A stretch of DNA of 41,589 nt from Thermoplasmata archaeon. Its GTDB lineage: Archaea > Thermoplasmatota > Thermoplasmata > RBG-16-68-12 > JAJISG01. The position numbers and the translations under genes are program-made. How positions within the stretch are numbered: position 1 is the first letter of the stretch; each line of letters starts with the position of its first letter. Where the stretch lies: NCBI GenBank assembly GCA_036444795.1, contig JAZFPV010000034.1:1-41589 (forward strand), read 5' to 3'. Shown here in pieces: positions 13,447-40,803 of this stretch. The notes below the pieces were generated by a model that saw only the letters and a program-made list of their open reading frames with translations, made no database searches and was not told the origin of the DNA.

Positions 13447-13701
13447 TTATCTCTCCACGACGACCCGGTAGGCCACGAACACCCCCGCCGTGGGGCTCAG
13501 GCGAATCACCTTGATGACACGTCCCTCCGCGATGGGCTCGCCCACCACCTCTTCGAGGAAGCGGATGGCGGGGTCCGCGCGCTTGATCTTCGGCAGCTGC
13601 TCCCGACCCACTCGCAGCTCGGTCAGGATGCCATCAGCCTCCTTCTCGGAGAGGAGGTGATGCTCGGGAACCATGTCGTGCTCCATCACGTTAAAGCCCA
13701 T
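13447..13701 (-). CDS. rpoH: DNA-directed RNA polymerase subunit H (Rpo5)
   Basis: 84 aa starting at internal Met45 of the tracked ORF ([21 protein letters not shown]...), typical RpoH size and sequence. GGAGG lies 6 nt upstream of the ATG. The longer ORF would run into the tRNA gene. Confidence 0.85.
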
Positions 13702-13729
13702 GTGTGTCCTCCTACCCCTGGCCGCCCGA

Positions 13730-13902
13730 CGGGCCCGCGGGGACTTTCGCTGCGCCTCCGGACGAGGCGCAATTTCGAACCCCGGACCATCTGGTTTCAG
13801 CGCAATCGCTCCCAGGAATTGCTCCCAGAGCAATGCCTAAAAGCCAGACGCTCTTTCTAGGGACCAGCCTCCGGCCGTCCAACCTAGCTGAGCTACGGGC
13901 CC
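13730..13902 (-). tRNA. tRNA-Lys (anticodon UUU) with three predicted introns: D-loop 13855-13881, anticodon loop 37/38 13796-13837, T-loop 59/60 13744-13773
   Basis: The reverse complement reads GGGCCCG TA GCTC AGCTAGGT[27]A GAGC G TCTGG CTTTTA[42]A CCAGA TGGTC CGGGG TTCGAA[30]T CCCCG CGGGCCC G. Splicing in silico gives a 74-nt canonical cloverleaf. The D-loop and T-loop inserts fold into bulge-helix-bulge motifs by eye. Confidence 0.75.
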
Positions 13903-14068
13903 AGGGGGCGGCGGTGCGCAGGGTCAATTCACGCTCCAGGCTCGGATAAACCTTACGGTGTGTCATGTCGGGCCAAGGCGCCTTCGATGCGCCGGGCCGT
14001 GGGGTGGCTGCGAGCCATAATCGGGGTCGTTCTTTTAATCCTCTCCTCCCGAAACGGGCCGGGAACCC

Positions 14069-14076
14069 TTTTATGC
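14069..14076 (+). promoter_or_regulatory. TATA-like box (CTTTTATG) ~29 nt upstream of the GTG at 14098; implies a leaderless or near-leaderless transcript
   Basis: An isolated AT-rich octamer in a GC-rich spacer, at the distance expected for an archaeal TATA box relative to a start-codon-proximal TSS. Confidence 0.4.
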
Positions 14077-14097
14077 GCCTTGGGGCTAGAACAAAGG

Positions 14098-14271
14098 GTG
14101 TTGGCCTGGATCGAGACCCAATGCACCACCTGCGGTCGTCCCTTGACGGAGCAGGGCTCCGTGATCTTCCGGTGCCCCCGATGCGGAGATACGACCATCG
14201 GACGCTGTGTCCGCTGCCGGGATCAGAGCGTACCCTACGCCTGCAAGAAGTGCGGCTTCCAGGGTCCCTAG
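14098..14271 (+). CDS. Small Zn-ribbon protein with four CxxC pairs (COG2888 / HVO_2753-like, translation-associated)
   Basis: 57 aa from the GTG at 14098: CTTCG...CPRCG...CVRCR...CKKCG. Lies immediately upstream of aEF-1beta, a pairing I recall as conserved in Euryarchaeota (recalled, not checked). The longer 103-aa ORF from 13960 was judged an artefactual extension. Confidence 0.7.
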   Translation: MLAWIETQCTTCGRPLTEQGSVIFRCPRCGDTTIGRCVRCRDQSVPYACKKCGFQGP

Positions 14272-14279
14272 GTGATCGA

Positions 14280-14540
14280 GTGGGGCGCGTGGTCGTCACC
14301 TTCCGGGCCATGCCGTCGGGGCCCGACGTGGAAATTTCTGCAATCCGGGCGGATTTGCACGCGTTCTTTGGAGAGGATCTGCGGGATCTTGTCGAGAAGC
14401 CGGTGGCCTTTGGCCTCGTCGGGCTGGAGGCCGTCGTCCTCCTGGAAGACGCGGGGGGACGCCTGGAAGCGGCGGAATCGGCCATTCGAGGGTTGGAGGG
14501 CGTCGGGAGCGTGGAAACCCTCTCCGTGGACCTTGTCTGA
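14280..14540 (+). CDS. Translation elongation factor aEF-1 beta
   Basis: 86 aa from the GTG at 14280: (M)GRVVVTFRAMPSGPDVEISAIRADL...VAFGLVGLEAVVLLEDAGG...VGSVETLSVDLV, matching the typical aEF-1beta length and pattern. Confidence 0.8.
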   Translation: MGRVVVTFRAMPSGPDVEISAIRADLHAFFGEDLRDLVEKPVAFGLVGLEAVVLLEDAGGRLEAAESAIRGLEGVGSVETLSVDLV

Positions 14541-21529: not shown

Positions 21530-21650
21530 GGTGTGACGGCCATAGCGGCGGGGATACACCCGGTCCCATCCCGAACCCGGAAGTTAAGCCCGCCTGCGTT
21601 CCCTCTGGTACTGCGGTGCGAGAGCCCGTGGGAAGGTTGGCCTGCAAGGG
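21530..21650 (+). rRNA. rrf: 5S rRNA (stand-alone; boundaries approximate, +/- 10 nt)
   Basis: GGCCATAGCGGCGGGGATACACCCGGTCCCATCCCGAACCCGGAAGTTAAGCCCGCC...GTACTGCGGTGCGAGAGCCCGTGGGAAG matches the universal 5S loop C / helix III-IV consensus. Helix I pairing is imperfect by eye, so the ends are uncertain. Confidence 0.8.
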
Positions 21651-30656: not shown

Positions 30657-30742
30657 GCCGCCGTAGCTCAGCTGGCGAGAGCGACGGTCTTGTAACCGCG
30701 CAAGAGAACCGTAGGTCAAGGGTTCGAATCCCTTCGGCGGCT
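30657..30742 (+). tRNA. tRNA-Thr (anticodon UGU) with a 12-nt intron at the canonical 37/38 position (30695-30706)
   Basis: GCCGCCG TA GCTC AGCTGGCGA GAGC G ACGGT CTTGTA[ACCGCGCAAGAG]A ACCGT AGGTC AAGGG TTCGAAT CCCTT CGGCGGC T. All stems are Watson-Crick. The anticodon-intron helix is CTTG:CAAG with a 3-nt 3' bulge AGA. A TATA-like AATTACTTTTAC lies ~30 nt upstream. Confidence 0.85.
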
Positions 30743-38587: not shown

Positions 38588-39676
38588 CTAGCGCACAAAG
38601 TCAACAAGGGGTGCGCGCGGGTCGGCTTCCGGGGATCGACCCAGAATCTGCCGGCTCTCCACGCCGGTGAGGACCACCATAACCCTCAGCCTGTGCTCTA
38701 GGCTTTTATCAACCGTCGCGCCCCATATAATCCTTGCGTCGGGGCTGATTCGCTCCTGGACGTACTCCGCTACTCGCTCCGCCTCGTAGACGCTCATGTC
38801 CATCCCGCCCGTGACGTTCACGAGGGCCGCGGACGCCCCGCTGACGTCGACCTCAAGGAGGGGGGAGTTGATGGCCTGCTCCACCGCCTCTTCGGCGCGC
38901 TCTTCGCTATGGCTCTCCCCCATCCCCATCATGGCGACGCCCCCCTCACCCATGACCGTCCGGATATCGTTGAAGTCCAGGTTCACGAGTCCAGGGCGGG
39001 TGACGATCTCGGAGATGCCTTTGATCGAACGCATGAGAACCTCGTCGGCGACCTTGAAGGCCGCGGCCAGCGGCAACCGAGGCACGAGTTCCAGAAGGCG
39101 GTCGTTGGGGATCATGATGAGCGTGTCCGCATACCGCCGGAGCTTCTCCAAGCCCCACTCTGCGTTCTCCATCCGGATGACGCCCTCCGCCCGAAAGGGG
39201 AGGGTGCAAATGGCCACGGTTAAGGCGCCCATCTCCTTGGCAACTCGGGCCACGACCGGGGCCCCGCCTGTGCCGGTCCCTCCGCCTTCTCCGCAGGTAA
39301 CGAACGCAATGTCGGCCCCTTCCATGAGGGCACGGATCTGGGGTTCCGCCTCTCGCGCGGCCTCCTCGCCCACGTGGGGGAGGGCGCCTGCGCCGAGCCC
39401 ACGCGTCGTGTGGCGACCCAGGAGAATCTTGTTCGGAGCTCGGACGTGGAGCAAGTGCTGGGCATCCGTATTGGCGGCGTAGAGATCCGCCCCCTCCACC
39501 CCCGCCTGGACGGTTCGGTTGATCGTATTGCAGCCGGCGCCCCCGATCCCCACGATCTTGATCGTGGTTCGGAGGCCCCGAAGAACCGCCTCCAGCTCCT
39601 CGTCCACCGAGAGCGGGGTCTCGGCGAGGACGTCCTCCTCCTGGCGAAAGGCGAGGGCTTCGGCGAAGACCCCCAT
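38588..39676 (-). CDS. ftsZ: Cell division GTPase FtsZ (downstream copy of a tandem pair)
   Basis: [13 protein letters not shown], tubulin signature [19 protein letters not shown] (T7 loop), NSPLLE. 362 aa. Confidence 0.9.
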
Positions 39677-39681
39677 ATGCG

Positions 39682-40803
39682 CTACCCCACGAAATCGATG
39701 CCCAACTTTTCCTTGACCTCCTGGGCGGTCTTGCGGCCCAGGATCTGCTTCGACTTCACGCCGGTCGCGACGAGCATAATCCGAAGCACGTGACGGAGGC
39801 CAGGGTCCACGGTGGCACCCCAGATGATGCGGGCGTTTGGGCTCACACGGGCCTGGACCTCTTCGGCGACGCGTTCGGCCTCGGAGACGGTCATGTCTTC
39901 TCCGCCGACGACGTTCACCAGGACGCCCGTGGAGGAGGAGACGTCGACCTCCAGCAGGGGAGAGTTGATCGCCTCGTCGATGGCCTCGATGGCCCGTTCC
40001 TCTCCCGTCGCCTGGCTCTCCCCGAGTCCGATCATGGCGACTCCTCCGCCCTTCATGATGGTCTTGATGTCATTGAAGTCGAGGTTGACCATGCCGGGCT
40101 TCGTGACCAGCTCGGTGATGCCCTTGATGGAACGCATGAGGACCTCGTCGGCCACCTTGAAGGCGGCGTTGAGGGAGAGGCGCGGGACCAATTCCAACAG
40201 CCGGTCGGTGGGGATGGCAATAACCGTGTCGGCGTTCTCTCGCAGCTTCTCCAATCCCCACTCCGCGTTCTCTGCCCGGATGCGACCTTCCCCGGTGAAG
40301 GGCATGGTGACCACGGCCACGGTCAGGGCGCCCATCTCCCGGGCGACCTGCGCCACCATCCCGATGGCCCCCGTCCCCGTGCCGCCCCCCAACCCGCACG
40401 TGACGAAGACCATGTCCGACTCGGCCAGTGCCGAACGGAGTTCTTCCTCCGCCTCCTTGGCGGCCTGGCTGCCCACGTGCGGAAGCGAGCCGGCCCCGAG
40501 GCCGCGCGTAAGGCGCTTGCCTAAGAGGAGTTTATGCGGGGACTTCGTGTGAAGGAGATGCTGGGCGTCCGTGTTGGCGGCGTACAGCTCTCCTCCCGTG
40601 ACCCCTTCTTCCACGATGCGAGAGATCGTATTGCAGCCGGCGCCTCCGATCCCCACGATCTTGATGCGGGTCTTGAGCGAGGCCAGAACCTCTTCCAATT
40701 CCTCGTTCGCTTCCGTGTCGTCGGCGCTAGGGACCGGAGCGGTAAGGTCCTCCGACTCAAAGCCGAGAGCATCCCTTGCGAGTGATTCCATAAGGTATCC
40801 CAT
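39682..40803 (-). CDS. ftsZ: Cell division GTPase FtsZ (upstream copy of a tandem pair)
   Basis: [38 protein letters not shown]. 373 aa. Separated from the next ftsZ by 5 nt. Confidence 0.9.

Follow-up and report, generated by a model that had tools for sequence, protein, structure and literature searches.

Transfer RNA (tRNA) genes with several introns, each spliced at a motif of the bulge-helix-bulge (BHB) type, are a known kind of gene. They are described for the Thermoproteales (Pyrobaculum, Thermofilum and Caldivirga; Sugahara et al. 2008, as reviewed in PMC4033280), and the same review lists N. equitans, M. kandleri, M. thermautotrophicus, Korarchaeum, ARMAN-1/2 and the red alga C. merolae as further hosts of multi-intron tRNAs, Thermoplasmata being absent from that list. 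Broad substrate specificity of the splicing endonuclease (EndA) accompanies enzymes of the (αβ)2 or ε2 type or those bearing a specificity loop (PMC4033280, PMC5829648), and the 'Cluster II' Euryarchaeota, which include the Thermoplasmata, possess exclusively α'2 EndA (PMC5829648). Here we describe a gene for tRNA-Lys(UUU) interrupted by three introns in a 41,589-nucleotide stretch of DNA from a Thermoplasmata archaeon (contig JAZFPV010000034.1, assembly GCA_036444795.1), hereafter called the window. What is unexpected about it is the lineage, the deep conservation at one locus, the relaxed motifs and the presence of only α'2 enzymes among relatives.

Like the genes of the Thermoproteales, the locus combines up to three BHB-flanked introns per gene, D- and T-loop positions included, with relaxed HBh' motifs (h, exon-side helix; B, bulge; H, central helix; h', intron-side helix) and is missed by standard gene finders. 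However, Thermoproteales are Crenarchaeota with a heterotetrameric (αβ)2 EndA that carries the crenarchaeal specific loop (CSL), whereas the window belongs to the Thermoplasmata and its relatives possess α'2 enzymes. Further, many tRNA genes are affected in Thermoproteales and similar introns have been transposed between them, in contrast to the old, position-stable introns of the single syntenic locus described here. Because host and enzyme type differ, the locus works like a Thermoproteales-type multi-intron gene yet lies outside that system.

Other described systems each share part of these features. Pre-tRNA-Glu(UUC) of Methanopyrus kandleri is likewise a euryarchaeal multi-intron tRNA from an organism whose EndA has no known specificity loop (Kaneta et al. 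2018, PMC5829648), but that enzyme is of the (αβ)2 type and belongs to 'Cluster I', whereas Thermoplasmata fall into 'Cluster II' with α'2 (PMC5829648). ARMAN-1/2 (Micrarchaeota) also carry non-canonical relaxed motifs outside the Crenarchaeota; their three-unit ε2 EndA gains broad specificity from a basic insertion just before the catalytic His (PMC3239211, PMC3488258), which most Thermoplasmata EndAs lack, a small subclade excepted. The tRNA-Pyl genes of Candidatus Methanohalarchaeum thermophilum HMET1 are an earlier non-methanopyral euryarchaeal case of more than one BHB intron in a tRNA gene, although tRNA and lineage are different, the introns number one or two, and neither motif strictness nor EndA type was analysed there (PMC9071458). 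A eukaryotic nuclear tRNA gene with three introns over the same three arms is also known; it depends on the eukaryotic heterotetrameric endonuclease and is evolutionarily unconnected. Within the library searched, no paper connects tRNA introns or EndA specificity to Thermoplasmata or Methanomassiliicoccales; GtRNAdb or the output of tRNAscan-SE 2 may contain such entries.

Organization of the split tRNA-Lys(UUU) gene

Positions 13902 to 13730 on the minus strand of the window read as a 173-nt tRNA-Lys(UUU) gene composed of four exons and three inserts, in exact agreement with the transcription given in an earlier annotation made from the letters of the window without database searches (the sequence-only reading). 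The inserts are located at positions 20/21, 37/38 and 59/60 in Sprinzl numbering, the first and the last of these being non-canonical (Table 1). Taking them out leaves the 74-mer GGGCCCGTAGCTCAGCTAGGTAGAGCGTCTGGCTTTTAACCAGATGGTCCGGGGTTCGAATCCCCGCGGGCCCG, which is called as tRNA-Lys(ttt) by ARAGORN and forms the canonical cloverleaf that the sequence-only reading had drawn. Acceptor stem (7 bp), D-stem (4 bp) and the anticodon and T stems (5 bp each) are all intact, and the invariant bases G18G19 and U33 as well as the TTCGAAT T-loop are retained. For the unspliced gene ARAGORN made no call, and the Rfam tRNA model gave no match at its gathering score or at E ≤ 1; intron-less syntenic orthologues, 93-96 % identical to the 74-mer, score 69-72 bits on the same model (threshold 29). 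A second copy of any of the three introns was not found within the 41.6-kb window at up to 5 differences. Together with the comparisons described below, these features lead us to regard the locus as a functional tRNA-Lys(UUU) gene of a Thermoplasmata archaeon near the Methanomassiliicoccales, spliced by EndA, a reading to which we assign a probability of roughly 0.86.

The T-loop intron is enclosed by a complete motif in which the 5-bp T-stem serves as h, H is UUCG:CGAA (4/4 paired), the bulges are AA|A and AG|U and h' comprises 9 bp; this BHB appears in the minimum free energy (MFE) structure predicted for the precursor as a whole. For the D-loop intron, H is CUAG:CUAG (4/4) on the C16-G18 side, the bulges are GU|U and AA|A and h' consists of the 4 bp GGAC:GUCC. 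Central helices, bulges and intron helices of both motifs reproduce those of the sequence-only reading. No contiguous exon-side helix is formed in the D-loop motif, the D-stem being separated from H by A14 and G15. These two bases stand opposite the 3' bulge, which places the D-loop 3' splice site within a 2x3 internal loop.

The window also points to a need for this tRNA. Among 300 Lys codons in 12 window genes, rpoB included, 38 are AAA, so a tRNA with the anticodon UUU is required. Two spurious long open reading frames (13447-13833 and 13712-14485, both on the minus strand) overlap the tRNA gene, and in one public assembly a 161-aa gene has been called across the locus (L081, 2505-2990), which shows how annotation pipelines mask it.

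Conservation and covariation of the introns in Thermoplasmata

The window encodes an unsplit RpoB of 1197 aa that is 87 % identical to those of two uncultured Methanomassiliicoccales metagenome-assembled genomes (MAGs), and the 80 best species-level loci are nearly all titled Thermoplasmata, Thermoplasmatota or Methanomassiliicoccales, the remainder having generic or evidently mislabelled titles. Based on RpoB identity and the labels of the nearest loci, the host is a Thermoplasmata euryarchaeon near the Methanomassiliicoccales, in line with the euryarchaeote-like context noted by the sequence-only reading. Proteins identical to the RpoH of the window occur in MAG GCA_036444635.1, which belongs to the same species, and in several metagenome assemblies.

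These 80 RpoB loci were oriented, taken with 6 kb of upstream flank and used for spliced alignment of the 74-mer. A syntenic tRNA-Lys(UUU) gene was identified upstream of rpoH in 70 of them, approximately 300-500 nt upstream of the RpoB match. It contains no intron in 20 loci, one in 5, two in 33 and three in 12, the window raising the three-intron genes to 13. The introns are present in 50 related species and confined to the three positions of the window, so that the positions assigned by the sequence-only reading recur across orthologues. Counting the 70 related species and the window, 51 of 71 copies carry at least one intron, and every one of the 51 includes a non-canonical one. The expectation of the sequence-only reading that such genes are rare in this host group does not hold within the class. 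D-loop and T-loop introns are spread over the part of the class whose RpoB is about 60-87 % identical to that of the window, the 37/38 intron has a patchier distribution, and the most distant loci, including those labelled Thermoplasmatales, have no introns. Introns of the D-loop and of the T-loop are of old origin and have been inherited widely. The same architecture is found in independent assemblies from NCBI, ENA, JGI and Logan. With zero, one, two or three introns at one syntenic locus in about 70 species, the series offers a clean natural record in which gains and losses of tRNA introns can be followed.

In all three BHBs, pairing is preserved by compensatory substitutions seen across dozens of species. 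Base pairs were counted in a length-matched 'mini-BHB' alignment for each intron class (A1, A2 and A3) and compared with 500 shuffles and with slid-structure controls. In the D-loop class (A1, 33 distinct orthologues) 96 % of cells are paired and 70 cells show a two-sided change; the corresponding values are 92 % and 83 cells for the T-loop class (A2, 37 orthologues) and 92 % and 31 cells for the 37/38 class (A3, 16 sequences). The covariation score was reached by 0 of 500 shuffles in each class, and control structures shifted by 1-3 columns were merely 24-68 % paired. When the motifs were parsed, virtually all cuts fell two nucleotides inside a 3-nt bulge, and H was paired at 4/4 in nearly all cases. 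The most telling case of covariation is the D-loop central helix, where the D-loop exon bases 16-18 pair with the 3' end of the intron and both sides change in concert (UA to CG in 9 sequences, AU to CG in 7), yielding the variants CUAG:CUAG, GUAG:CUAC, CCCG:CGGG and CCAG:CUGG. The D-loop motif is relaxed (HBh', h = 0) in all 48 orthologues with this intron.

The 37/38 intron and alternative explanations

The sequence-only reading had drawn no clean BHB for the 42-nt insert, which proved accurate. In its central helix C32, U33, U34 and U35 stand against GCUG and only C32:G and U35:G pair (2/4), U33 and U34 facing U and C. The intron helix, which comprises 3 bp in the window, is 4-11 bp long in strains and sister species, and the orthologous 37/38 introns of more distant relatives are of the strict hBHBh' type. 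Scanning metagenome contigs for the pattern of the intron ends yielded six more species-level variants of the window clade. H is paired through its outer pairs only (2/4) in the window, L001, L095, L100 and L112 and is complete (4/4) in L107 and L116; the intron strand reads GCUG, GUCG or ACUG in the former case and AGAG in the latter. The outer pairs (C32:G and U35:G/A) and both 3-nt bulges are kept by all members of the clade, whose intron strand has at its two inner positions either two purines, which pair, or two pyrimidines. The exons of the six clade species are identical to those of the window or differ at no more than 3 positions, and the D-loop intron is almost invariant. The interior of the 37/38 intron varies freely with a compensated h' (GCAAUG:CAUUGC, GCAGUG:CGUUGC, and 11 bp in L100). 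Among eight near-identical strains, including the L081-L088 set, all differences fall inside this intron (gene positions 70, 71 and 83 and one 1-nt insertion). Conserved exons next to a drifting but compensated intron speak against a pseudogene and in favour of a functional gene whose enzyme copes with tandem pyrimidine mismatches.

The strongest of the competing explanations is that this is a decaying copy of a once functional three-intron gene, in which the window-clade 37/38 intron has lost its central helix and become irremovable, the cell being served by another tRNA-Lys(UUU). It draws on the outer-pairs-only helix of the five loci named above, on an RNAfold prediction without a BHB and on the fact that the genome is represented here by the 41.6-kb window. 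We consider it improbable, as exons are invariant in the eight strains and nearly so in the six clade species while the intron drifts with a compensated h', the outer pairs and both bulges are universal in the clade, the both-purine or both-pyrimidine inner positions are unlike free decay, and a promoter box has been kept. The sequence-only reading had named a pseudogene as one of the outcomes that would overturn it; no broken stems, lost invariant bases or neutral exon drift were found, the stems being intact and the exons near-invariant.

Somewhat less probable still is a removal of the 42-nt insert in two steps, as a nested intron, or by a route independent of a BHB, for example a eukaryote-like ruler needing only C32:G at intron position -3. 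This pair is the only strong feature kept beside the 3' splice site, and the insert contains a 13-nt direct repeat. On the other hand, a scan of the precursor returned no inner BHB whose removal puts a purine-rich strand beside the 3' bulge, an ordinary 4/4 helix is present in L107 and L116, two clade members with identical intron ends, and archaeal enzymes are not known to use a ruler mechanism. The location of C32:G is presumably that of the eukaryotic anticodon-intron (A-I) pair, which we treat as a lead. That the four pieces are merely tRNA-like, through chance resemblance or an assembly artefact, is vanishingly improbable: apart from the silence of the standard detectors nothing speaks for it, and it is refuted by the recurrence of the architecture in independent assemblies, by covariation and by intron-less orthologues at the same locus. 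A functional, EndA-spliced tRNA-Lys(UUU) gene is therefore the reading we prefer.

Alternative structures for the insert were rejected. An exhaustive scan of the precursor for nested or alternative BHBs gave no combination yielding a tRNA except the 37/38 solution, and a shifted BHB (TTTA:TGAA) would destroy the anticodon stem. The direct repeat in the insert is imperfect (CTGGGAGCAATTC / CTGGGAGCGATTG) and suggests a small internal duplication.

The pattern of the intron ends also matched an unrelated repeat of approximately 70 nt and low G+C (GGCTTTTAGGCAGAAAATCACC...GTTGCTATAAAACC), which belongs to another organism and is no tRNA. Three copies at a spacing of 182 nt are located in L103 (1521-1954), and about 18 other Ga0209755 contigs contain it; the contigs with this repeat include L092, L097, L098, L101-L105, L108, L109, L111, L114 and L117.

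The window encodes a further intron-containing tRNA, tRNA-Thr(UGU) at 30657-30742 (+), whose 12-nt intron accgcgcaagag is located at 37/38 and which ARAGORN reports as tRNA-???. Its motif consists of H = CUUG:CAAG, a 3' bulge AG|A and an intron-side helix of one C:G pair closing a 3-nt loop. With a single C:G pair as intron helix, the 5' splice site comes to lie in a hairpin loop (bulge-helix-loop), making this another relaxed substrate in the same genome.

Splicing endonucleases of Thermoplasmata and a proposed maturation pathway

EndAs of Thermoplasmata were collected with an α'2 profile against cluster representatives followed by a focused search, and the figures given here refer to the best 120 matches. 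Every named protein among them is from Thermoplasmata, Methanomassiliicoccales or Thermoplasmatota, and 118 have a length of 334-383 aa, the other two of 321 and 326 aa. A profile built from catalytic domains in the PDB returned only α4 and ε2 proteins among the best 120 matches listed. For nine EndAs the contigs were looked up, and all nine have the domain order N-C-N-C of the α'2 type. The spacing between the FRxY motif and the catalytic His is 7 residues in 108 of the 120, compared with 10 in A. fulgidus and 14 in ARMAN-2, which carries a specificity loop. At the CSL site, 101 have 6 residues and 3 have 10-11, the pattern being unreadable in 16; the references are A. fulgidus with 6 residues and the loop-grafted chimera 3p1y with 16. 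The enzyme of the lineage, judged from these protein sequences, is most likely an α'2-type EndA, the sole type found in Thermoplasmata here. Neither a crenarchaeal (TACK) host nor an (αβ)2 EndA with the specific loop was encountered, the enzymes seen being those of relatives. A broad-specificity EndA had been proposed in the sequence-only reading; as far as a known broad type is concerned this is not what the relatives have, their EndAs being α'2 without insertions like the CSL or the ARMAN loop, and a broadened specificity may nevertheless apply.

A subclade comprising P0294, P0328, P0329, P0331 and P0284 contains a basic insertion of 6 residues (RTKRES; e.g. DSMPRTKRESDRT) just before the catalytic His, the same site as the ARMAN-2 specificity loop. 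The genes of P0331 and P0294 are located at L118 1132-2178 and L119 2285-3325. P0331, P0294, P0348, P0405, P0376 and P0431 come from assemblies other than those of the RpoB loci, and no synteny was found between EndA loci and the window. One direct link between enzyme and gene is provided by P0339 (351 aa, α'2, without insertion), encoded at 174.6-177.7 kb on the 955-kb JGI contig Ga0208297_1000002. On this contig rpoH is located at approximately 123-126 kb, about 50 kb from the EndA gene, and just upstream of it lies a tRNA-Lys(UUU) gene with a relaxed D-loop intron of 33 nt and a T-loop intron of 31 nt. A circumstantial link is given by P0332, a plain α'2 enzyme that occurs, at similar G+C, in both metagenome assemblies holding window-clade three-intron genes. 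The N-terminal 'structural' repeat is complete in Thermoplasmata α'2 enzymes (P0339, P0382, P0389, P0431, P0348 and P0332 were aligned). In this repeat FRVF replaces FRVY, an FPRGG-x-P loop is conserved and His and Lys are retained, whereas A. fulgidus EndA has deletions in this part and is without the FPRGG-x-P loop. A role of the repeat in substrate recognition is a speculation at this point.

We propose that the gene is transcribed from its own B recognition element (BRE)/TATA-like box, possibly with read-through into rpoH; boxes of the same type (e.g. aaacTTTAATA and atcTTTATATA) are found at equal distance in most relatives displayed. The 173-nt precursor would then fold such that each insert forms a BHB with the adjacent exon bases, EndA would cleave two nucleotides into each of the six bulges, and an RtcB-type ligase would join the four exons. 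RNase P, RNase Z and the CCA-adding enzyme would complete the 74-nt tRNA, the order of steps being tentative. An α'2 EndA would need to accept the relaxed D-loop motif as well as the window-clade helix with two pyrimidine-pyrimidine mismatches.

Several points weigh against this reading. Cleavage, ligation and step order are all inferred from sequence. Folded by itself, the 42-nt insert gives no BHB, its MFE structure (RNAfold) being a rod of -28.0 kcal/mol, and H is likewise unformed at the -22.0 kcal/mol obtained when the six bulge bases are kept unpaired. The organism's own EndA was not found, neither the window nor 1.2 Mb of related loci containing one. Enzymes of the α4 and α'2 types are reported to cut canonical BHBs only (PMC4033280, PMC5829648), at odds with the relaxed D-loop motif. 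Finally, our view of the genome is the window, and a second, intron-free tRNA-Lys(UUU) may exist elsewhere.

We hypothesize, with even odds, that Thermoplasmata α'2 EndA is unrestricted to strict BHBs and routinely cuts the relaxed D-loop motif, the outer-pairs-only helix and the 12-nt tRNA-Thr intron. In that case the outer-pairs-only helix would leave essentially a eukaryote-like C32:G(-3) pair, and the N-terminal repeat with its FPRGG-x-P loop might act as a new specificity element. Broadened specificity would be a new property of α'2 enzymes, and the accepted dependence of intron diversity on the EndA subunit type or on the L1/L2/L3 loops would not hold for an entire euryarchaeal class. 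An essential tRNA gene present as a single copy in Thermoplasmata would then have passed on non-canonical introns stably without this being noticed. The accepted coupling of non-canonical or multiple introns to heteromeric, ε2 or loop-bearing EndA is put to the test by this class, in which α'2 without those loops is the only enzyme type found here. The question of EndA specificity is directly testable, since Methanomassiliicoccus luminyensis is cultured.

The reportedly missing tRNA-Lys of Methanomassiliicoccus luminyensis

In the genome of M. luminyensis, tRNA-Lys went undetected by tRNAscan, TFAM, ARAGORN and BLASTN, for which Borrel et al. 2014 blamed 17 kb of missing sequence (PMC4153887). 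A gene with D- and T-loop introns is located upstream of rpoH in the Methanomassiliicoccus-labelled loci L020 and L024, in the closely similar L016 and also in L089/L090, the RpoH of L089/L090 being 81-87 % identical to that of L024. A search for M. luminyensis B10 via RpoH returned no match or cluster member of that name. Judging from these MAGs of the same genus or family (L016, L020, L024 and L089), an intron-bearing gene probably explains the absence and is a more likely cause than missing sequence. The report fits an intron-bearing gene as the sole tRNA-Lys copy in that family.

ARAGORN and Rfam miss the intron-split tRNA-Lys in every locus tested. An essential tRNA is thus hidden from routine annotation in a large class of environmental and medical relevance (gut and soil Methanomassiliicoccales, soil Thermoplasmata), and completeness estimates as well as codon-usage and tRNA-set analyses of these genomes are biased by its omission.

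Genomic context of the locus

Table 1 Features of the tRNA-Lys(UUU) locus in the window.
Feature	Position	Strand	Remarks
BRE/TATA-like promoter box aaggTTTATc	13945..13954	-	43-52 nt upstream of mature 5' end; putative function
Whole tRNA-Lys(UUU) gene	13730..13902	-	173 nt; CCA not encoded
Exon 1: acceptor 5' strand, D-stem 5' strand, D-loop up to U20	13882..13902	-	
Intron 1, D-loop, 20/21	13855..13881	-	27 nt; relaxed HBh' motif
Exon 2: A21, D-stem 3' strand, G26, anticodon stem 5' strand, C32-A37 with anticodon UUU	13838..13854	-	
Intron 2, canonical 37/38	13796..13837	-	42 nt; exon helix (anticodon stem) and intron helix present
Exon 3: A38, anticodon stem 3' strand, variable loop, T-stem 5' strand, T-loop U54-A59	13774..13795	-	
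Intron 3, T-loop, 59/60	13744..13773	-	30 nt; strict hBHBh'
Exon 4: U60, T-stem 3' strand, acceptor 3' strand, discriminator G73	13730..13743	-	
rpoH (RNA polymerase subunit H)	13447..13701	-	Pfam Rpb5_C, E = 1.8e-24

Downstream of the tRNA gene follow rpoH, rpoB, rpoA' and rpoA'', with rpoH starting 28 nt past the end of the tRNA. The placement of tRNA-Lys(UUU) immediately before rpoH is kept throughout the class (70 of 80 loci). The spacer (13702-13729) contains GGAGG and no T-run, and in the absence of the latter co-transcription with the RNA polymerase operon is possible. The other flank encodes aEF-1beta, a small Zn-ribbon protein, a mechanosensitive-channel protein and a permease.

Leader and trailer of the tRNA in the window (13903-13912 and 13721-13728) can form 7 bp (GCCGCCC:GGGCGGC), which is not significant (z = -1.5). 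In L003-L006 and L073 about 25 nt on each side of the tRNA are complementary (z = -4.3 to -5.9 relative to shuffles), and the stem of the L003 clade has approximately 20 bp. A leader-trailer stem acting as a BHB that excises the tRNA was rejected, 3-nt bulges being absent.

The window has a G+C content of 64 % and also encodes the PolD subunit DP2, an H+-pyrophosphatase and a uL11-uL1-uL10-P1 cluster. Two FtsZ paralogues are arranged in tandem at 38588-39676 (-) and 39682-40803 (-), each with Tubulin and FtsZ_C domains at E = 1e-45 or better. A 5S rRNA gene at 21532-21649 (+; 81.9 bits) stands solitary between the genes for the H+-pyrophosphatase and a thioredoxin, with neither a 16S nor a 23S gene close by, which agrees with the lack of linkage among rRNA genes described in Thermoplasmata and Methanomassiliicoccales (PMC4153887).

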